The notes below the pieces were generated by a model. The model was not told where the DNA came from. It ran no database searches and saw only the letters and a list, made by a program, of their open reading frames with translations. Shown here piece after piece: positions 2,982 through 54,786 of a stretch of DNA of 54,786 bases. The number at the start of each line of letters is the position of its first letter. Position 1 is the stretch's first letter. A program made the translations under genes and the position numbers. The stretch is from a virus (Duplodnaviria; Caudoviricetes), in the IMG/VR virus record IMGVR_UViG_3300036826_000065, positions 1 to 54,786 of that record; one strand, given 5' to 3'.

Positions 2982-5900
2982 TTACGGCTCCGTCTCATAG
3001 CAAATGATGCCGCCGATAATACGAACGTTCACGTCAGCGTTGTTGATCTTCAACGCCACTACAGCCCCGCTAGCTACGGTGAGGCCTGTGTGATTGCCGT
3101 AGCTGGTGACACCGCCACCGATTATCCCAAAATCCCCGCCATACACATGGTTATTGGTCTGCACCGTTCTGAGCCATTTGCCGCCGCTGTCAGCGGACAA
3201 AATGCCGTTGATATTGATCTGCATGCAGGAGACGTTTCCAAGGTTGTCCACCTGGAAGTTGCTGCCGCCGCTGTACTGGAAGATAATGCCGGTTCCAGGC
3301 GCACCAGAGCACTGCACCGACCGGAATGTCACGTCGTTGGTGGTTCCCACCGGCTGGCCGATGGAGAGTGTCACCGTGTTGGAGCCGTTGCTGGCGGTCA
3401 CGCCAGTGCTTCCAGCAATCGAGATCGCGGGACCGCTCATGCCGTTCACGCTGGTCACGCCCGCGCCGGTCGTCGCGAAGTTGACCGTGCCCCAGCCGGT
3501 GCCGGTGTAGTAGTAATACGTGCTGCCGGACTGGTAGGCCAAGCCGCCCACGCCCGTGCCGGGAATCGGCAGGTTCGCACTGCCGAAGCCTCCCGTGCTC
3601 GTCATCATGAAGGCCGCGCCGCCATGACTGTCAGCCGCCCTGAAGTTGCCGTTCTCCAGATACACGCCGACCGACCTCGCATTCGTCTGGTCGTCATTCG
3701 GGGGGTTCGGATTCTCTCCGGTTACCTGCCCGCGCACGTGCAACTGGCCGGTGTTATGCAGCCACATTTTGGCGTAGCGCGAGGATTGGGTATTTGGCGT
3801 CACGTTGAATTGTATGTCGGTGCCCCAGGCCGAACCGCTCCAGGCCTCGCTGGTGACGAACGTGATGGATGCGCTCGCGGCTGAGATGAAGCCGCCGCTA
3901 TGGGCGCCGCGCCCGCCTATGGACATGAGCGTGAGGCCGCTCGGCAGATTCTGAAAGACGCCACTCCCTGGCAACCCGCCGGTATAGTATGCGCGGCGCC
4001 CGATAAAGCCTGGTACTCGGGTAGGATCGTTGGCTGAGTCGTAGCAATCCACGAGCAGATTGTTGGTCGCGTTGGAGGTCACGAATAAGCCGGTAACGCC
4101 GGTCAGGCCGGAGCCCAGGTCGGGCGTGAAGGCCGGGAAGACGCCGATCCGCCCCAGGGCGACGATGCCGCCGACCGTCTGAATGGAGTTGTAGTTGGTG
4201 GCGACGTCCACGTACAGCCCGCCGTTGCTCTGGATGAAGCCCTGTTCGCACTCGATGCCGACCACGCTGTTGGACGTGCCCTTGACGTGCAGGAATGTTT
4301 GCGGAGCGGGATTGTTAATGCCAACGTAGCCGTTGTACTGAATTCGCATTCGCTCGGTGCGAGTTGTGCCTCCAGCATATGTGTAGAAGGCGAGGCCGGA
4401 GGTCTGGCCACTCGCCGTCTCCCAGATTGCACTTAGACCCGGTGCAGCGGCGTAATAACTGGCGTTGTAATAAATCGGATCGCCCAAGTATATCGAGGCC
4501 GCAATCTTCGCGCTAGATGAAGTGTTGGCCGTAGCGTATGCGCCTATATCGCCCCTGACGGATAGGGTATTCCACGGCGCATCACCAATGCCCACGCTCT
4601 CATAAAACCGGGCGTAGGTCGACCGGAGTTCCAGCGACGTGGCATTGGAGCCGCCGCCTGATCCGTCGCCCACGAGGAAGGAGAGGGCTCCAGTGACGTA
4701 GTAGTTGGGAGAGGCGGATACGGTCACCGCCGTGCAAAGGATCGCCGCGCCGCCGTTGCCGGAACCGTACCAGTTGACGCCGCCCAGGATATCGCCGCTT
4801 TGGATCTTAGTCGGAGCCGCGAGAGTGCCCCGATGCCTGGAGAACGCTATGTACGGGTAGAAGTAACTGGTGTCGTTCGCATAGGTCATCGAGATCTGAT
4901 TCGTAACATCGCTCGCGATGCGGAGGATGCCAGGATTCAGACTGAGGATCTTATTGGTGTAATCCCAGGCGAATCCGGCCTCTCCGGTGATCCCAGTTCC
5001 CGTCTTGTAATACTGGATGGCCTGATCCGTCCCCGCGCCGCCGATGCTGGCGAGCGTGTTGAAGTTCAGCGTCTTCCAGCCCGCTGGCAGCGTTGGCGAG
5101 GGGGTATCATCCCAGTAGTAGTAAGTCGAGTTCCCTTGGAAAGCGAAGACGCCGTAGCCGCCCCCGGGCGGATTGAGGTCCGCTGTCGAGGCGTGGGCCT
5201 TCATGTGGACGTTCTGCGCGGTGACAAAGCCGGAAGCCGCGTTGATCCAGGCGTTGCAGCAGAGATGGGTTGTCAGCACCACCTTCGCCGCCGGGGGCTG
5301 GTTGGCACTGGAAGCCCAAAGTAGCACGTCGGTCCAGCCATCGGGGAATGAAGCGTTGAGCAGTGGCTGCGGGAAATTGATGCCGCCCTGCAACCTGGGC
5401 AGGTCGATGTAGCCACCTTTGTAAGGCGAGATGGAACTGGAAATGATGCCCACTCCATTGCAATACACGCCGCCAGTGGTGGCCTGGATCGCTTGGTAGC
5501 TGGGGGCTGGAGTGTAGAAGCCGTCCTCGCTGTGGATGTAGCCAATGGAAGCGTAAATCGACGGTGAACCAGAGACACCCATCACCTGGAGCGGCCAAGT
5601 GGGGGCCGTCTTGATGCCGACCTTACCACCGAAGTAGCTGGGGGCATCGCCAGTGTTGTACATAGCCCAGCTATCATTGGCAGTGGAGGATTGTTGGGTG
5701 AAAATCGCGTAGTTATGCTGGCCCGAACTTAGGGCCTCCATCCTGACCCCATAGAGATTGGTGATCGTAGTGGCGGCGGGATTAGATCCTATAAAACAGA
5801 ACCAGTTCCCAATCGTTGAGGTCGCGCCGCCGCCGTAGGCCCCGCCATCACACCAGAAGCCCATCACGTTATTGATCGTGCCGGTCGCCCCGGCGGTATA

Positions 5901-47781: not shown

Positions 47782-47895
47782 CAGTGATGGCTCGTCGTGA
47801 TGACCATGCCTTGAGCATGGTCTGTATGGTTTCGGTCATGGTCTATGCGTAGCATGGGCCGTCTGCTTCAAGTCAATGGCCTTGGGGTGAAATCC

Positions 47896-48225
47896 TCATC
47901 CCTCCCAGGGCGTCAGGGCGAAGCCGTCGCCCTCCGGCGGATGATCGACCCACAGGGCCTCGTATAGCGACTCGCTCCGCGAGACGACTTTGTAGTCGAG
48001 TTCGCCCGCTCGCCGCAGCATGCGCAGGATGCGATCCGGCGAGCCGGGCGCCACTTCGCCCACGTTCACGCGCACGTAGCGCCGCAGATCGTCCGCGAAG
48101 AACTGCTGGCCGCACCGCTCGCGCATAAACGCTTTGACGGCCCCGCCGATACGCTCGCTGACGCGCTCGATGTTCTCTTGCTGCTCGTCCATCGCCTCAT
48201 TCCATGCCCAGTTCCTGGCGCACAC
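47896..48225 (-). CDS. hypothetical winged-helix-like protein
   Basis: APGSPDRILRMLR..G..DY.VVSR..SLY. Confidence 0.6.
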   Translation of the reverse strand: MCARNWAWNEAMDEQQENIERVSERIGGAVKAFMRERCGQQFFADDLRRYVRVNVGEVAPGSPDRILRMLRRAGELDYKVVSRSESLYEALWVDHPPEGDGFALTPWEG

Positions 48226-48562
48226 CGGGAAGGTCGCGGAACCAGAACCGGCGCCCGTCAGCCGACTCGCCGGTCAAGTGCATGCGCAGAATTGGAGATT
48301 GCTTCCCGCGCAGATGTTCACGCAGCCACTGGAGCCCAACGACAATGAAGCCGTGCGGGCTGCGGGAGTCCACCTGGGGCGGCATGGCCGCGACTTCGGT
48401 CTTGGAGAGTACATCCGCCATTCCGTCCCAGGGATTGATCTCATCGGTCATTTGATTTCTCCTCGCCTCGCCATGCCCCTCCGCGCCCAACCGGGCCTCG
48501 CCGGGTAGATCATTCGTCGGCCTCCAGAATCGATATGCCGCCAGCTTGCTTCGCCGCCTCAT
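48197..48562 (-). CDS. hypothetical protein (true start probably internal, MTDEIN)
   Basis: GGAG SD before the internal ATG. Confidence 0.45.
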   Translation of the reverse strand: MRRRSKLAAYRFWRPTNDLPGEARLGAEGHGEARRNQMTDEINPWDGMADVLSKTEVAAMPPQVDSRSPHGFIVVGLQWLREHLRGKQSPILRMHLTGESADGRRFWFRDLPGVRQELGME

Positions 48563-48731
48563 CGAGCAGGTCCATTCCCGGCTGGTTGGTCGCGAAGATG
48601 TAGATCGGCCCTTCCTCCGGCTGCACCACCTTCCTCACCGTATAGAAGGGGTCCGGCGACGTGATGGAGTGCGTGCGGAAAACATCCGTCAGCAAGTCGC
48701 CCAGGAGGAGAGCCATTTCGTTGCTGGTCAT
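48510..48731 (-). CDS. hypothetical protein
   Basis: Coupled ORF. Confidence 0.5.
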   Translation of the reverse strand: MTSNEMALLLGDLLTDVFRTHSITSPDPFYTVRKVVQPEEGPIYIFATNQPGMDLLDEAAKQAGGISILEADE

Positions 48732-48952
48732 CGCTTCGGCCTTCTGAATAACTCGCGATCAGGGCACGTAACGAAGTGCGACTCGCCGTCCGGGTTGTAG
48801 ATTCCCAGCACGCCGTTCAGGTGGCGCACCATATAGACTTCAGCCTTGCAGTTGGGACCGCGACACACAGATGGATTCCCAACACGCGACAGTAACGCCC
48901 GCGTGAGCGCGTGGGCGCGTTCCAGTTCGGTTAGTTCATTTACTCCAGACAT
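48728..48952 (-). CDS. small Zn-binding hypothetical protein
   Basis: C...C and HF.TCP. Confidence 0.55.
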   Translation of the reverse strand: MSGVNELTELERAHALTRALLSRVGNPSVCRGPNCKAEVYMVRHLNGVLGIYNPDGESHFVTCPDRELFRRPKR

Positions 48953-49154
48953 TCAGTCCCCTCCGCAGTGATCGTCACCGAATGCAGCAGATTGCGCGAG
49001 CGATCTCGCCATTCGATCTCGACGCCGCCAATTAAGTTGGCCCGCACTTCGGGCGTGGCGTTGATGATTTGTTCGGCCAGAAAGATGGCCGCTTCGCTGG
49101 GCGGCTGATCGCCGCAGCCTGGGTCGGCCCCGCGCAGATAATCAAGCTTGATTG

Positions 49155-49577
49155 TCATTCGCCCTCCTTCGGCGGCTCCTTCACGGGTTTCAGCGAGCCG
49201 GAGTCCTCCTCCATCAGCCGCTGGCCTTCCTCCCAACTCACTGCGTTGGGATACTCCACCATCTCGATGCCGCGCCGCTTCAGTTCCTTCATGACCTTCT
49301 CCATGTGATCCGCGAATGAGCGGTTGTGCGCGTGTCCCAGGACCCAGCACAGGACCTCCGCATAGGAATGAATACGGATCGCTAACATCGAGCCGGAGCC
49401 AATGGGGATGCTGGGCTCGAGAATGAGTCCCGCGTATAAGTCGTGCGCGAACTGAATCTCGCGCAAGCTACGGATTTTAGGCCTTTCCATCGCCCCCTCG
49501 CTTGAATTGAAGCTTGCGGGCGAAGTCGAAGAGCACGTCATAGGCGACAAGATAAACGTCCCGTTTCCGCTTCTCAC
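49155..49577 (-). CDS. hypothetical protein (start probably MERPKI)
   Basis: L.WVLG motif; internal SD. Confidence 0.5.
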   Translation of the reverse strand: MRSGNGTFILSPMTCSSTSPASFNSSEGAMERPKIRSLREIQFAHDLYAGLILEPSIPIGSGSMLAIRIHSYAEVLCWVLGHAHNRSFADHMEKVMKELKRRGIEMVEYPNAVSWEEGQRLMEEDSGSLKPVKEPPKEGE

Positions 49578-49680
49578 TGATCTCCAGGTAGCGCGGGAAA
49601 AGCCGAATGATGAGAGGCCGGTCGCGATGCTTTGCCGCCGTCTCGCGAATTACTGAGCTTGAGCTTTCAAGCTTGGTCAT
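49477..49680 (-). CDS. hypothetical protein
   Basis: GAGGAG SD. Confidence 0.55.
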   Translation of the reverse strand: MTKLESSSSVIRETAAKHRDRPLIIRLFPRYLEISEKRKRDVYLVAYDVLFDFARKLQFKRGGDGKA

Positions 49681-49827
49681 AACTCCTCAGTCGCGCCGCA
49701 GGTTTGACACACATATCCATAAAACACCATCCATTCCGAATAGCCGTCACAACTGACGCCCGATGGATACTCAACTTCGGCGTAAGTCATCGGGGCGCCG
49801 CATGAGCAAACCTTCTCGGGTTGATCA

Positions 49828-50304
49828 TTCTCGCCTTGCATCGCACTGCCCCACCTCACCATGCCCTGCCCCACCTCGCCAGACATTGCCTCGCCATGCC
49901 TAGCCATGTTGAGGAAAAAAACCTCGCCTTACCTTACCTGACCGTGCCCGACCCTACCCGACCCTACCCGACCAGACCTCACCCGACACAGCCTCGCCAT
50001 GCCCCGCCGCTGAAAAAAAAGAATGAGTGCAGCCTCGCCATGCCTCGCCGTGCCGGACCTCACCTCGCCATACCGGGCCACGCCTTAACTCGCCTAGCCC
50101 CGCCATACTTTAAATCCTCGCCTCGCCATGCCTGACCAAGCCAAACCGCGCACGGCCTCACCATGCCGGACCCCGCCCAGCCACAAGATGAAAATATGAG
50201 TGCAACCTCGCCTTACCTTGCCGCGCCGCGCCACTCCCCGCCACTCCATGCATTGGCCCACCACGCGATGCCACGCCAAGCCTGACACCGCCCTGCCTCA
50301 CCAC
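49828..50304 (-). repeat. five (NN-GGY)n pentamer arrays, putative guide RNAs (49828-49907, 49921-50010, 50032-50106, 50115-50184, 50205-50304)
   Basis: Strict 5-nt periodicity (RCC-NN on plus), 14-20 units each, separated by AT-rich linkers. Confidence 0.85.
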
Positions 50305-50309
50305 GATCT

Positions 50310-50990
50310 CTACGCGGCTGTCATCGTCTTGCCGGACAGCAAGCCAGCCAGCCGCTCCAAAGCCTTGCGAACATCGTCGTTCGCGAGATCCATGAGCCCG
50401 CTCTCTAGGAGATCGATCACCTGACGGATCATGAACGTCTGGGTCGCGCCGCCCAGGCGTTTATTCACCTCGACCTGCTCGCCGGTCAGCGTCATTCCGC
50501 TCATGTGGGCGGCGGCGCGTTTCAGCGGAATCGGCTGCGGCTTCTTTTGCCCCGGCACATTCAATTCGCCCAGCCGGTTGAGCCGAAGCTCGCCCAGTTT
50601 CATGACCGTCACGCCCAGGGCGGCGGCGGTCTGATCAACCGTCAGTTCCAGCTTCTGCCCAATCAACTGACAGCGGATGCGGTCAATGTTCGTCAGTTTG
50701 CGCCCATGATCCGCGTTCAGGCGCATCGCATCCATGAATAGCTCGCCATCGGTCTTATAGTTCCGTGTCACCACCTCGACCGGATATTCCTTGCCGTGCA
50801 GCGACAGATACAGTTTGTACCGATGGAAGCCGTCCACGATCCGCCGCGATTTCGCGCAGATGATAATCGGCGGGAATGTTCTCCCGGCCTTCAGCGATTG
50901 CTTCATTTCCGCGACGTGGTACATATCTACCGACTCTCGCGGATAAACGTCATAGTCCAAAACTAAGTCGCTCAATTTATAAGTCTTCAT
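50310..50990 (-). CDS. ParB/Srx N-terminal domain protein
   Basis: FPPIII...IVDGFHRY and N..HG..L motifs. Confidence 0.8.
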   Translation of the reverse strand: MKTYKLSDLVLDYDVYPRESVDMYHVAEMKQSLKAGRTFPPIIICAKSRRIVDGFHRYKLYLSLHGKEYPVEVVTRNYKTDGELFMDAMRLNADHGRKLTNIDRIRCQLIGQKLELTVDQTAAALGVTVMKLGELRLNRLGELNVPGQKKPQPIPLKRAAAHMSGMTLTGEQVEVNKRLGGATQTFMIRQVIDLLESGLMDLANDDVRKALERLAGLLSGKTMTAA

Positions 50991-50991
50991 A

Positions 50992-51332
50992 ACCTCGCCC
51001 TGCACCGCCAAACCTCACCATGCCTCGCCGTACCCAACCCGGCCAGACCCCGCCAAGCCAAGCATCACCCCGCACGGCCCTGCCACGCCCCGCTGCAAAA
51101 GAGTTCCACAAATCTTATAAGTGCAACCGCGCCATGCCTTGCCGAACCGCGCCAGGCCGTGCCTGACCCGGCCAGACCTCGCCTGACCAGACCCGGCCAA
51201 GCCTCGATCAGGAGGAGCAGGGCGGGAAGCAGCCCGCCCTGTCGAAGTATGTGTCAGAGTTGTCCTCGCCTTGCCTCGCGCCGCCCAGCCCGGCCAGACC
51301 TTGCCGCGCCAGGCCGCGCACGGCCTCGCCTT
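50992..51332 (-). repeat. three (NN-GGY)n arrays (50992-51091, 51126-51205, 51263-51332)
   Basis: Same periodicity; hairpin at 51218-51241 in a linker. Confidence 0.85.
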
Positions 51333-51907
51333 CAGTTCTTAGAAGTCTCCAGAAGTCGTAGACTGAAACGTCCGAATGGTCCTCCCTTCTCCGGTCGGTA
51401 ATCACCGATGCCGACCATGCGACCGGCGAGGTTGCCAATCTCCTCGATCATCTTCAGGTTCTCCACGATGGTGTCGTCCACCTCCAGGTTCACGACCGCT
51501 CGCCAGTTTTCGATCTTTGGGCGCGAGCGCATGATGCCGATGGTCTTGTTGAGGACCACGCGCCGGGTATCCACCGTGTAGCTCTTGCCGCTCATCGGCT
51601 TGCCCTTGGCGTCCAAGATCTGGAAGTATTCGTCCAACGGGAAGATGGTCGCCTTCAGAACTCCCAGCGCACTGAGCTTGCCGATGCGACGGCCTTTGCC
51701 GCCGCTGGCAATCGCCGCCTTCACGGCGACTGTGGGAAAGACGAAGTTGCCCTTCTCATCCAGGTAACGACCGGCTGCGGCTTCGTCCTCCGGCTCCGGC
51801 ACCTTCTTGGTGTCCAGCTTGCCGTGCTTACTGCCGCTCATTGCGGAAGGGTTGTGCATCAGAATCGGCGTCGTGCCGACCAGTTCGACTTTAATATTCG
51901 TTGACAT
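51332..51907 (-). CDS. RAMP/Cas7-like RNA-binding protein (putative guide-RNA effector)
   Basis: N-terminal VELVGTTPILMH, FP..AVKAAI, and C-terminal Gly-rich loop GIGDYRPEKGGPFGRF; flanked by arrays. Confidence 0.65.
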   Translation of the reverse strand: MSTNIKVELVGTTPILMHNPSAMSGSKHGKLDTKKVPEPEDEAAAGRYLDEKGNFVFPTVAVKAAIASGGKGRRIGKLSALGVLKATIFPLDEYFQILDAKGKPMSGKSYTVDTRRVVLNKTIGIMRSRPKIENWRAVVNLEVDDTIVENLKMIEEIGNLAGRMVGIGDYRPEKGGPFGRFSLRLLETSKN

Positions 51908-51941
51908 ACACGTGTCCTCTCAGTTCTCATTGATTGGATTG

Positions 51942-52166
51942 ACCATGCCCCGCCATACCACGCCGAATCACGCCTGACCAAGCCAAACCCAACCGCGCCT
52001 AGCCAAACCCTGCCGGGATGCTATGTCCGGGGTTGCCCAATAGTTTCGGTATTAGGCCCTTGTATTAAGAAACCTCGCCTTGCCATACCATGCAGTGCAT
52101 TGCCATGACCCGCCGGACCTCGCCGGACCAGACCTCGCCTAGCCGTGCCACGCACCGCCATGCCTC
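51942..52166 (-). repeat. two (NN-GGY)n arrays (51942-52016, 52072-52166)
   Basis: Same periodicity. Confidence 0.85.
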
Positions 52167-52533
52167 AACTCTCAGAATCTTCGTCAAGATCTTCCCTGTC
52201 GAATAACTGCCTCTGCAACTCGCCGGGAGTCATCTTCTCGACGCGAATCGGCTTACCACTGCTCGCAACAAAAACAGTCTTTTCGCCAACTGAGGGCTCA
52301 TCGAAAGTAACCCCAATCTCCATCTCCTCCAACTCATAGCCCAGGGCGAGTTTCTGCTGGAGATCGCTGCACGCCTTCTCGGCGGTCAGGATCTCACTGG
52401 CAATCGCGGACGTCATTGCCTTTTTCCGACTGCGCAGTTCATAAATCGCTCCCACGCGAAAAACCAGTTCGTCCTTCATCCGCGACGTCTCTTCGGCGGT
52501 GAACGGTCGCTTCACTTCCTCCGTCATCTTCAT
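52165..52533 (-). CDS. hypothetical phage protein
   Basis: FT.EE...GYE...G...MT..ELQ; GGAGG SD. Confidence 0.7.
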   Translation of the reverse strand: MKMTEEVKRPFTAEETSRMKDELVFRVGAIYELRSRKKAMTSAIASEILTAEKACSDLQQKLALGYELEEMEIGVTFDEPSVGEKTVFVASSGKPIRVEKMTPGELQRQLFDREDLDEDSES

Positions 52534-52546
52534 GAAGTAAGCCTCC

Positions 52547-53518
52547 TTAGTGCGCCCAACTGGGTTGTGGCAAGAACACCTTCTTGCCGGTTTCGGTTTG
52601 CAGCCGTGCGACGAAGATCGCCTTCACCCGGTTGTACGCGGGCGTGCGGTCGCGTTCGGAGATCGTGCGCCCCAGGAGCCAATCGACATAGTCCGCTGTC
52701 GCGCTTACCGACATGAGACATTTCTTGAACGAATCCCTGGTAATCGGCGCCACCTTGCTCGACAGTTCGGGGTGCAGGACTAAGCGCCGGAAAAGCCACA
52801 TGCAGATGATCATGTTGAGCGTTGACCAGAGCCGACCGTACTGCAAGTCGCGCCCCCAGGCGCCCACGGCAAGATTCAGGAATTCGATGAGCGCATCGTA
52901 CTCCTTCGGATCGAGCGTTTCCGCGACCAGGGCGGCGCTTAATGTGGCGCCCGTGCTGGGGACTTCCGACATGCTGCCGCGCCATGCCCTGAGGACCAGC
53001 GACATGCCCACGACCGGCGCCGACTGATTGCGGCGGATGTAATCGTAGCCGACAAAGGGACAATGCGCCCGCAACTTCCGCAGCCCGTCGATGGAGGACT
53101 CCAGCCCGCGCAGGATATCGTCTGGGCGCATGCGGACCAGTTGCGAGTTCAGCCGGACGAACTCCTCGCCCATGTCGGCCATCGAGTTGAAGTAGTGCGT
53201 CCTGACGTCGGTGTAGCCTTCCTTGCAGCCGGAGAGGATGAACGACTCCTTCCTGTGCTGGCCGTCGATCAGATAGATCTCGCCGTCCAGAATCGCCAGC
53301 GTGATGATTCCCGGCCAGACGCCGCCGTCGCGCTTCATCTCTTCGGCCAGGGCGCGGACCTTCTCGTTCTGGCGCACCGGCCTCTGGAACGGCGGCGACT
53401 TCCACTTCTCCAGCAACGTGGGCGTCACCATGATGGTGTCCACGACGGTGCGAGTCTTTTTCTCCACCGGCGTTTGCGGTTTCACGATTTTAAATAGCGC
53501 GGCCAATGGCATGTGCAA
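52547..53518 (-). CDS. DGQHR/ParB-like domain protein
   Basis: FQRP and YLIDGQHR. Confidence 0.75.
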   Translation of the reverse strand: MHMPLAALFKIVKPQTPVEKKTRTVVDTIMVTPTLLEKWKSPPFQRPVRQNEKVRALAEEMKRDGGVWPGIITLAILDGEIYLIDGQHRKESFILSGCKEGYTDVRTHYFNSMADMGEEFVRLNSQLVRMRPDDILRGLESSIDGLRKLRAHCPFVGYDYIRRNQSAPVVGMSLVLRAWRGSMSEVPSTGATLSAALVAETLDPKEYDALIEFLNLAVGAWGRDLQYGRLWSTLNMIICMWLFRRLVLHPELSSKVAPITRDSFKKCLMSVSATADYVDWLLGRTISERDRTPAYNRVKAIFVARLQTETGKKVFLPQPSWAH

Positions 53519-54275
53519 CGTCTCCTTCCTCAGTGGTCATTTCCGCGAGCCGATAAATCTCCTTGGCCTCCGGCGAGTCCAAGAGATGCCAGCCCATTGC
53601 GTCGTAGGGCCTCATCCTTGCGCTCCGCAGGATCATCCGAACGAATTGCCCGTGCCCATGGTTGCTGCGGTCGCTGATCAAGCCGTGCGGTCTGTGGAAG
53701 AGCTTGGGCATCTCCTCCAGCCGGTACAGCCTCCGGTGCGCCTTCTCCGGGTTGGCCTTCAGGTCGCCGCGCATCAGCCGGTAATGGCGCAGGTTCAAAT
53801 TCATGATCAGGTCCATGCGCGGGAAGCGGGCGCAGCACTCGATGATCTCCGCGACCGGAACGCCCGCGCCGGTCCTGCTCCGATACAGCCAGCCGTTCGG
53901 GTCGATCACGATACTGCCGACAGCGTGCGGCGGCATGCCCTTGGCCCATTCCATGAAGTGCCGGTTATCGAGCATCTCCACCCGGCAGTTGGGTCGGCCT
54001 CGCAGCCGCGTCTCAAGCTCGCCCGCGCGGGCGTTATCCAATTCAAAGAACATCGCCTTCCAGCGGCGCAGATGTTTCTGCGCAAGCTCCAAGAAGACCA
54101 GCGGCGTACCGGGGACGCCGTACTCATCGTTCCAACCGGAACCGGCGTTCAAGTCGAAGTGATAGTAAGTATCGCCAGGGTAAAGTATCCGCATGCTCAT
54201 GCTGAACATAGCGGCGATCCGCCGCCCTTTGTCGCAAGTGCTCAGACCTTGCCCTTGACGTCTGCCATCCTGCAT
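53490..54275 (-). CDS. SAM-dependent methyltransferase-like protein (TcmP/GMT-like)
   Basis: GQG.S..., FDLNAGSG, G.P, IDPNG and DLIMN motifs. Confidence 0.6.
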   Translation of the reverse strand: MQDGRRQGQGLSTCDKGRRIAAMFSMSMRILYPGDTYYHFDLNAGSGWNDEYGVPGTPLVFLELAQKHLRRWKAMFFELDNARAGELETRLRGRPNCRVEMLDNRHFMEWAKGMPPHAVGSIVIDPNGWLYRSRTGAGVPVAEIIECCARFPRMDLIMNLNLRHYRLMRGDLKANPEKAHRRLYRLEEMPKLFHRPHGLISDRSNHGHGQFVRMILRSARMRPYDAMGWHLLDSPEAKEIYRLAEMTTEEGDVAHAIGRAI

Positions 54276-54301
54276 AAGTTCGCCAGCTTTCGGTAAGGGA
54301 G

Positions 54302-54659
54302 TTACTCTTTGGGCGGCTCGCCGGTTTCCTGCGCCGCCGACATGACCCGGTCGCGGAGCTTCGGCCTTTCTTTCGCACCGGCCTCCAGTTGCTTCGCGCC
54401 TTCGTCGAGGACTTCTTCCCAGCCGCTGACATCCACGGCTTCGGTGTCCTCCTTCTCGATGACGTTGCGCACCTCAGGCGAGAGCGGAAGCCACTTGGAA
54501 TGGCGGCGGAAAACCGTCTTCTTCGCCATCTCGTCGAAATCGGTCACCCATGGTCCCTGATCCGGCGACTTACTGCGCTTGCGGATCTTCTCGATCTCTG
54601 ACGGGTTCATGACGATGAAATCTTCGCTACCGTCCTTGAATCGCACGTAGGAATAGTAA
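54302..54659 (-). CDS. recT: RecT C-terminal part (joined to 524..1)
   Basis: GPWVTDFDEMAKKTVFRR.SKWLPLS. Confidence 0.9.
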
Positions 54660-54786
54660 GCGACTCGATCCGGCCCGCGATCCTTGGCGTTCGGCGTGTG
54701 CTTTAAGTGCGCCTCGGTTCCGTAGGCATAGCTCCATTCGTCGTTGCTGTAAACCGCATCGGCATGCACATAGCTGACGTCGCCGG

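Follow-up and report, generated by a model that had tools for sequence, protein, structure and literature searches.

The locus described here is a VIPR system, of a kind already described, and two of its guides correspond to a tyrosine integrase, one to box I and the other to box II. Box I, with its catalytic Arg, and box II, the HxxR box, are the catalytic boxes of tyrosine recombinases. The array at 51126..51205, which spells box II, is very probably the guide part of one phage VIPR vrRNA, and silencing of the integrase of a rival element is its likely function.

VIPR, first described in 2026, is an RNA-guided gene-silencing system (10.64898/2026.04.26.720920). In the available text of that preprint, Vipr is a small RAMP-like protein that binds vrRNAs of 9-16 YNNGG repeats; the GGY of each repeat is held by the protein, and the NN pair with double-stranded DNA by a 1-nt skip rule, the skipped base being mostly the wobble position of a codon (10.64898/2026.04.26.720920). 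The same text reports that VIPR binding represses transcription and that in nature it is turned on competitors, namely other phages, satellites and prophages. The words 'integrase' and 'recombinase' do not occur in its main text, the supplementary target tables aside. According to the accessible part of a cryo-EM study, there is one Vipr protomer per repeat, the residues that hold GGY are named, and bases are flipped periodically (10.64898/2026.04.26.720927). A further preprint, in the portion at hand, reports that a guide of phage SUSP1 set on the active-site codons of a satellite serine recombinase blocks excision, and that standalone satellite-borne vrRNAs redirect Vipr complexes (10.64898/2026.10.15.759431).

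Arrays and genes of the locus

The virus record is complete (54,786 bp, with direct terminal repeats and 60% G+C), and the window is this whole stretch of DNA at its full length of 54,786 nucleotides. The long ORFs are on the minus strand. Sequencing runs with the segment 49800-52200 were soil-metagenome DNA runs only, and blastn against cultured phages gave only a short match in the RecT gene, to mycobacteriophages. The RecT-family ORF (54302-54784) runs off the right end of the record; because it matches the Pfam model only at profile positions 79-189, the gene probably continues across the terminal repeat.

The pattern (GGYNN)x7 had 34 matches on the minus strand of the window, none on the plus strand, and none when read backwards as a control. 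By these strand-specific match counts against the backwards control, the array field is far beyond chance. On the plus strand there were 14 runs of at least five NNNCC units and none of the mirror form; 13 of the 14 runs were intergenic, at 48458-52149, and the remaining one was a weak 5-unit run in a large ORF at 3822. The window holds 11 GGY/NN arrays of 8-20 units each, in unusually long intergenic regions at 48465-52166 (Table 1). As is characteristic of VIPR systems, arrays flank vipr in long intergenic regions on the same strand as the gene. A vrRNA is marked by at least four YNNGG units in tandem, typically 9-16, with GGY conserved and NN variable. The arrays are GAGG-rich, and in some units TGC or GTC replaces GGC.

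Table 1. Features of the VIPR locus, with positions in the window
Feature	Position	Strand	Remark
Box II array, repeat tract of putative vrRNA	51126..51205	-	16 YNNGG units; NN spell integrase box II (DFRLHDLRHTLAS[KN][IM]A)
3' junction of box II array	51092..51128	-	GGYTGCACTYAT at 51117-51128, then T-rich stretch
Box I array	50992..51091	-	20 units (3 degenerate TGC units); NN spell integrase box I
vipr gene, 191-aa RAMP-like protein	51332..51907	-	homologue of phage SUSP1 Vipr; between arrays
13-unit array beginning at vipr stop codon	51268..51332	-	array decoding
G+C-rich hairpin, nine pairs, without U-tract	51218..51241	-	between vipr-stop array and box II array
15-unit array, upstream of vipr	51942..52016	-	array decoding
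13-unit array, upstream of vipr	52102..52166	-	degenerate continuation to about 52075
Block of five arrays, short A+T-rich linkers	49848..50244	-	array decoding
Arrays of the five-array block	50244..50205, 50184..50120, 50106..50032, 50010..49921, 49907..49848	-	
8-unit array between two small genes	48465..48504	-	array decoding
ParB-like protein gene	50310..50990	-	PHROG ParB-like, E 6.6e-10; between two array blocks
122-aa protein of unknown function	52165..52533	-	just upstream of arrays

The box II array is made up of 16 unbroken, perfect NN-GG-Y units on the minus strand (51205..51126). Its NN pairs are GA TT CG CT CA GA CT CG CA AC CT GC TC AA AT GC, letter for letter the list given in an earlier, sequence-only reading of this DNA. 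That reading had proposed an NNx code, and this is the published 1-nt skip rule of VIPR (10.64898/2026.04.26.720920). With the NN as codon bases 1 and 2, the units decode as D/E F/L R L H/Q D/E L R H/Q T L A S N/K I/M A. The peptide D.RLHDLRHT.AS that had been drawn from them is an allowed reading but not the sole one, the two-way boxes having been narrowed (H not Q, D not E). The box I array decodes as G V [SR] R G [DE] [FL] [FL] G L R W T [DE] [IM] [DE] ..., which includes the box I arginine. This array continues into the following gene's ribosome-binding site and ATG. Among the other arrays, 50010..49921 decodes as A G [IM] [DE] [CW] R [DE] L R [SR] R [SR] R T [HQ] [NK] [NK] [DE].

The sequence GGYTGCACTYAT has three exact copies in the window (50023-50034, 50196-50207 and 51117-51128, minus strand), all at array 3' ends and each followed by T-rich sequence; its total of four matches was reached in none of 100 shuffles. 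Its role may be that of a 3' handle, of a processing site or of a promoter for the vrRNA that follows, and the 3' junction of the box II array is a candidate 3' tail or handle. The fold of the 3' tail of that array was not significant (z-score -0.52). The 62-nt segment containing the nine-pair hairpin had a folding energy of -23 kcal/mol and a z-score of -3.26, and the hairpin could act as structured tail, as terminator or in processing. Terminator-like sites were no commoner than in shuffles, and a sigma-70 promoter scan gave no sites. An Rfam search of 47800-52700 (E<=1) found no ribozymes, hammerhead or other, between the arrays; its one match, to Collinsella-1, was sub-threshold (16.8 bits against a cut-off of 35) and was taken as chance.

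The 191-aa vipr product matched no Pfam family and one PHROG, of unknown function. Among 581 candidates, 121 were homologues at E<=0.001. By tblastn the protein was found in 132 phage records, mostly of Felixounavirus-like coliphages, and a viral search with the Vipr protein gave one distant viral locus. The match to the SUSP1 record had E 2.9e-11, and BLASTP against SUSP1 agp039 gave 26% identity over 196 columns (E 2e-16); agp039 itself lies between intergenic regions of 450 nt and 530 nt that bear GGY/NN runs. The GGY-holding residues H17, R138, D177, W178 and R179 of the SUSP1 protein align with H18, R129, D169, Y170 and R171, the Trp (W178) being replaced by another aromatic residue, Y170. 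In 66 homologues R129 and R171 are invariant and D169 nearly so. SUSP1 K33 has no matching residue, its counterpart being G29 in a low-confidence loop. A C-terminal glycine-rich motif, GIGDYRPEKGGPFGRF, is present, and G162, G166, G176 and G179 are invariant in the 66 homologues.

An AlphaFold2 model of the 191-aa protein, built from the alignment of the 66 homologues, had a pLDDT of 92.9. Foldseek gave 130 matches to the model at E<=0.001, headed by chains of ~190-220 residues that belong to effector complexes of type VII and type III CRISPR systems (lowest E 2.3e-7). Judged by chain size, these are probably the backbone Cas7/Csm3 subunits. The predicted structure and the Foldseek matches agree in giving the protein the RAMP-like fold, with RRM core, glycine-rich loop and thumb, that marks VIPR systems.

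Array-bearing viral loci were also collected with no criterion but the repeats themselves: (GGYNN)x10, matched against viral contigs, gave at least 120 loci (L010-L129 being those listed), of 38-71% G+C and with variable NN pairs. Among the 120 listed, arrays were confined to one strand per locus with the single exception of L039, and 84 had a match to the Vipr HMM; all 84 matches shared the strand of the arrays, and their median distance to one was 44 nt. In the other 36 of the 120 listed loci there was no such match within the DNA searched, and these could be solo vrRNA carriers, hold other Vipr clades or be truncated. Homologues of the ParB-like protein, which had no Pfam match, were present in four of the 120 listed loci (L073, L083, L101 and L121), and those of the 122-aa protein in one. 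The ParB-like gene is at this stage a candidate accessory (vap) gene, and the gene of the 122-aa protein a second candidate.

Matches of the two guides to tyrosine integrases

In the gapped query each GGY was replaced by one free base, and the full box II pattern had 47 bases. With all 16 NN exact, this pattern had no match in viral contigs, metagenome contigs or genome contigs, and the contiguous 11-NN core RLHDLRHTLAS, with both unusual leucines, had none in viral contigs. When units 4, 11 and 14-16 were freed, the relaxed 11-NN pattern, with 22 specified bases, found 59 loci in viral contigs; the same pattern read backwards as a control found none. Each of the 59 lay in frame over [DE][FL]RxHDLRHTxAS, with 11-13 of the 16 NN pairs and up to 28/32 bases. 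A 10-NN pattern gave at least 119 loci in metagenome contigs, which by construction of the pattern encode RLHDLRHTxAS; the best among the 60 matches listed had 27/32 bases. In genome contigs a 12-NN pattern found five MAG contigs, of Gemmatimonadales, Acidobacteriaceae, Bdellovibrionales, Acidobacteriota and Methylomirabilota, and the best genome match was the integrase of the Acidobacteriota MAG (L314), with 29/32 bases and 13/16 NN pairs. The box II array scores, 29/32 there and 28/32 in the viral contig L172, were always in frame. All nine target ORFs examined with Pfam matched PF00589 (E 2e-16 to 1.5e-33), and two of the nine had an arm-binding domain besides. The two best-matching integrases, those of L314 and L172, have an N-terminal arm-DNA-binding domain, PF13356, together with PF00589. 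The gapped-pattern search that had been proposed for this array thus matched real integrases, and the assignment of the motif to box II of tyrosine recombinases is borne out by the 59 in-frame matches and the nine PF00589 ORFs.

The best targets of both guides follow the 1-nt skip rule at >=80% NN match, with the skips on wobble positions. In every match the guide reads in the same direction as the coding strand; therefore no pairing with the mRNA is possible, which fits DNA binding, and the guide would pair with the template DNA strand. The phage's own genome gave best scores of only 20/32 for the box II guide and 23/40 for the box I guide. A search of that genome for PF00589 gave no match at E<=10, the control search being positive in 14 of 14 reference genomes, and there is no self-target because the phage is without an integrase of its own.

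The neighbouring array had been said to spell the other integrase motif, and it does: it matches box I (G-x-R-R-G-E...G-L-R-W-x-D-x-D) in the same ORFs and in the same frame. Two reciprocal tests bear on this. In the first, 183 loci were picked solely via sub-patterns of the box II array. The box I array reached >=26/40 bases at 40 sites; 200 shuffles of its unit order averaged 0.36 such sites and never exceeded 4, and with its unit order reversed it reached this at no site. One of the 200 shuffles reached the real maximum of 30/40; the top scores alone are therefore weak evidence, and it is the excess in counts that tells. A separate search for box I, in frame only and 150-447 nt upstream of box II, placed the best box I sites ~76-120 codons upstream of box II, and alignments of the three best loci place the box I matches in the same ORF and frame as box II. 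In the second test 113 viral loci were picked solely via a box I sub-pattern. Here the box II array reached >=22/32 at 18 sites, where shuffles averaged 0.52 and never exceeded 5, and >=24/32 at five sites, where shuffles averaged 0.01. The best box I array score, among the loci of this test, was 34/40 (L422). Shuffled arrays, which on the idea of a chance resemblance should have matched equally well, were in both tests far below the real guides. The proposal that both arrays hit the same integrase gene stands as to ORF and frame, but no gene matched both guides at >=80%; the best pairs were 28/32 with 29/40 (L172) and 26/32 with 29/40 (L312). The nine other arrays of the window showed no excess over shuffles in the integrase loci.

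One integrase or many

In independently chosen integrases, the box II guide matched at rates of 1.00 (H), 0.88 (R), 0.98 (H) and 0.88 (A) and, at further conserved codons of the same set, 0.73 (L), 0.71 (D), 0.65 (R) and 0.58 (T). At the variable codons, units 1, 2, 4, 11 and 14-16, the match rate was 0.00-0.23; Leu at unit 11 was found at 0.01 of sites, and the rates for units 14-16 were 0.00-0.20. The sequence-only reading had suggested that guides are retained against invariant residues. This is borne out only in part: the invariant residues are indeed covered, but at variable positions the guide has specific bases that few other integrases share. These specific, rarely matched bases point to one particular target lineage, and the box II guide looks like a copy of one particular integrase outside the searched collections, not like a consensus. 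That guides are kept against invariant residues is, in the part of the text available, already in print for a serine recombinase (10.64898/2026.10.15.759431).

A guide working at the level of the family, with both arrays silencing many tyrosine integrases via the invariant codons of boxes I and II and mismatches elsewhere being tolerated, is unlikely. The best match rates do fall at conserved positions (the two H, R, A, L and D above all), 10-13 of the 16 NN pairs are matched in hundreds of diverse integrases, and there was no perfect target across the three collections. Against this, rare and specific bases at variable positions are what is expected from descent from, or selection on, one target, and natural targets were counted, as far as the text at hand shows, at >=80% NN match (10.64898/2026.04.26.720920), most integrases being lower. 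We are likewise doubtful that the two guides make up a general anti-integrase weapon, with the ParB-like protein as a new accessory class on bound DNA. If that were true, one lytic soil phage could simultaneously keep a multitude of prophages, satellites and integrative elements, unrelated to one another, from moving; RNA-guided silencing would act at the level of the family, not of the element, and the weapon would read codon positions 1 and 2 of both catalytic boxes common to most tyrosine integrases. The ParB-like protein, encoded between the arrays, could then spread or clamp on the bound DNA.

It is very improbable that the array is a decoy or counter-defence RNA, one that redirects or soaks up the Vipr of another element and does not arm the phage's own. 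The redirection of Vipr complexes by standalone vrRNAs mentioned above is a precedent, and the 36 listed loci without a Vipr match in the DNA searched would suit it; in this phage, though, the arrays flank a full-length vipr on the same strand, and the reported decoys, in the portion of the source available, aim at repetitive host sequences and not at the catalytic codons of mobile elements (10.64898/2026.10.15.759431). That the arrays are structural or regulatory repeats, and the integrase reading a coincidence among many arrays and motifs, is extremely improbable: the 5-nt period does recall TRAP-like triplet-plus-spacer sites, two-tier G-quadruplexes and centromere-like arrays, nine of the 11 arrays are without a recognised target, and the arrays are rich in GAGG with one running into a start codon, but a 22-base pattern fell in frame on one motif in 59 of 59 cases against none for its backwards control, the box I array independently matched the same ORFs with the reverse test holding too, none of 433 other arrays in the 120 listed viral loci decoded to box I or box II, in sense or antisense, and a RAMP-like protein lies alongside the arrays in 84 of those loci. 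TRAP-like RNA sites, two-tier G-quadruplexes, Chi-like sites, centromere repeats for the ParB-like protein and ribosome standby sites were dropped given the VIPR literature and the control scans.

For the VIPR guide, the preferred reading, the course of events may be pictured from the available text of the VIPR preprints. Each Vipr protomer would bind one repeat, hold its GGY and present the NN; the NN would pair with one DNA strand, every third target base being flipped out, and the bound complex would repress transcription. Upon infection of a soil host, the box I and box II guides would bring Vipr to the integrase gene of an element that resides there, which might be a prophage, a satellite or another integrative element. 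Expression of the integrase would be blocked and, with it, excision or integration of the element. Silent changes would offer the target no escape, since across the catalytic motifs only codon positions 1 and 2 are read.

Relation to known systems

The nearest known relative is the VIPR of SUSP1, type II in the available text of 10.64898/2026.04.26.720920. Both have a homologous Vipr of ~190-195 aa with conserved GGY-contact residues, GGY/NN arrays on both sides of vipr in long intergenic regions and on the gene strand, and a one-base skip per codon. Unlike SUSP1, the present phage is a soil phage of 60% G+C; its Vipr is only distantly related, a ParB-like gene lies between the arrays, and there are 11 arrays as against four. 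No vap1 homologue is present, SUSP1 vap1 having no BLASTP match among the window ORFs at E<=1. The pseudoknot tail of the SUSP1 clade was not detected in the soil phage, and the short GGYTGCACTYAT junction recurs instead.

Like the vrRNA4 of SUSP1, as described in the part of the source at hand (10.64898/2026.10.15.759431), the box II array would be a phage guide on the active-site codons of a recombinase, wobble-aligned against escape by silent mutation, and for both the proposed result is that excision is blocked. The vrRNA4 target given there, a recombinase of 506 aa, has a catalytic serine, and the guide covers 18 bp (six units). In contrast, the predicted targets of the soil phage are tyrosine integrases (PF00589), and each of the two catalytic boxes has a guide of its own, one of 16 and one of 20 units. 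The tactic of striking at a recombinase active site, so far reported for a serine recombinase, would thereby take in tyrosine integrases, which are much commoner, on both catalytic boxes, and two defined guide-target pairs are offered. The discontinuous code of VIPR holds far from E. coli, in an uncultured soil phage of 60% G+C with a Vipr of 26% identity. That the code was correctly deduced with nothing but the sequence at hand suggests that other arrays in such loci can be read likewise.

CRISPR-Cas arrays consist of direct repeats of 25-40 nt and unique spacers, and go with cas genes. Tandem Repeats Finder gave only periods of 5 to 20 nt and no CRISPR repeats at 48000-54786, and the neighbouring proteins were without Cas families in Pfam and PHROGs; on both counts the locus was set apart from CRISPR-Cas. 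It resembles the class 1 backbone (Cas7/Csm3-type) in that the predicted Vipr fold matches type VII and type III effector chains and in that VIPR, in the text available, has one protomer per repeat unit with periodic flipping (10.64898/2026.04.26.720927). It differs in that the VIPR guide is discontinuous, with two of five bases read, and is fixed in the genome, not acquired as a spacer.

Related strains carry altered arrays. In soil-metagenome contigs from two runs (X6 and X7) there are 10-base, two-unit insertions at the 3' end of the box II array (51125-51129), and in the X6 contig the array by the vipr stop (51203-51332) is replaced by other sequence; arrays therefore vary by whole units between strains. 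The vipr and ParB-like genes of X6 are ~6% different, with 109 other letters in ~1,685 aligned bases.
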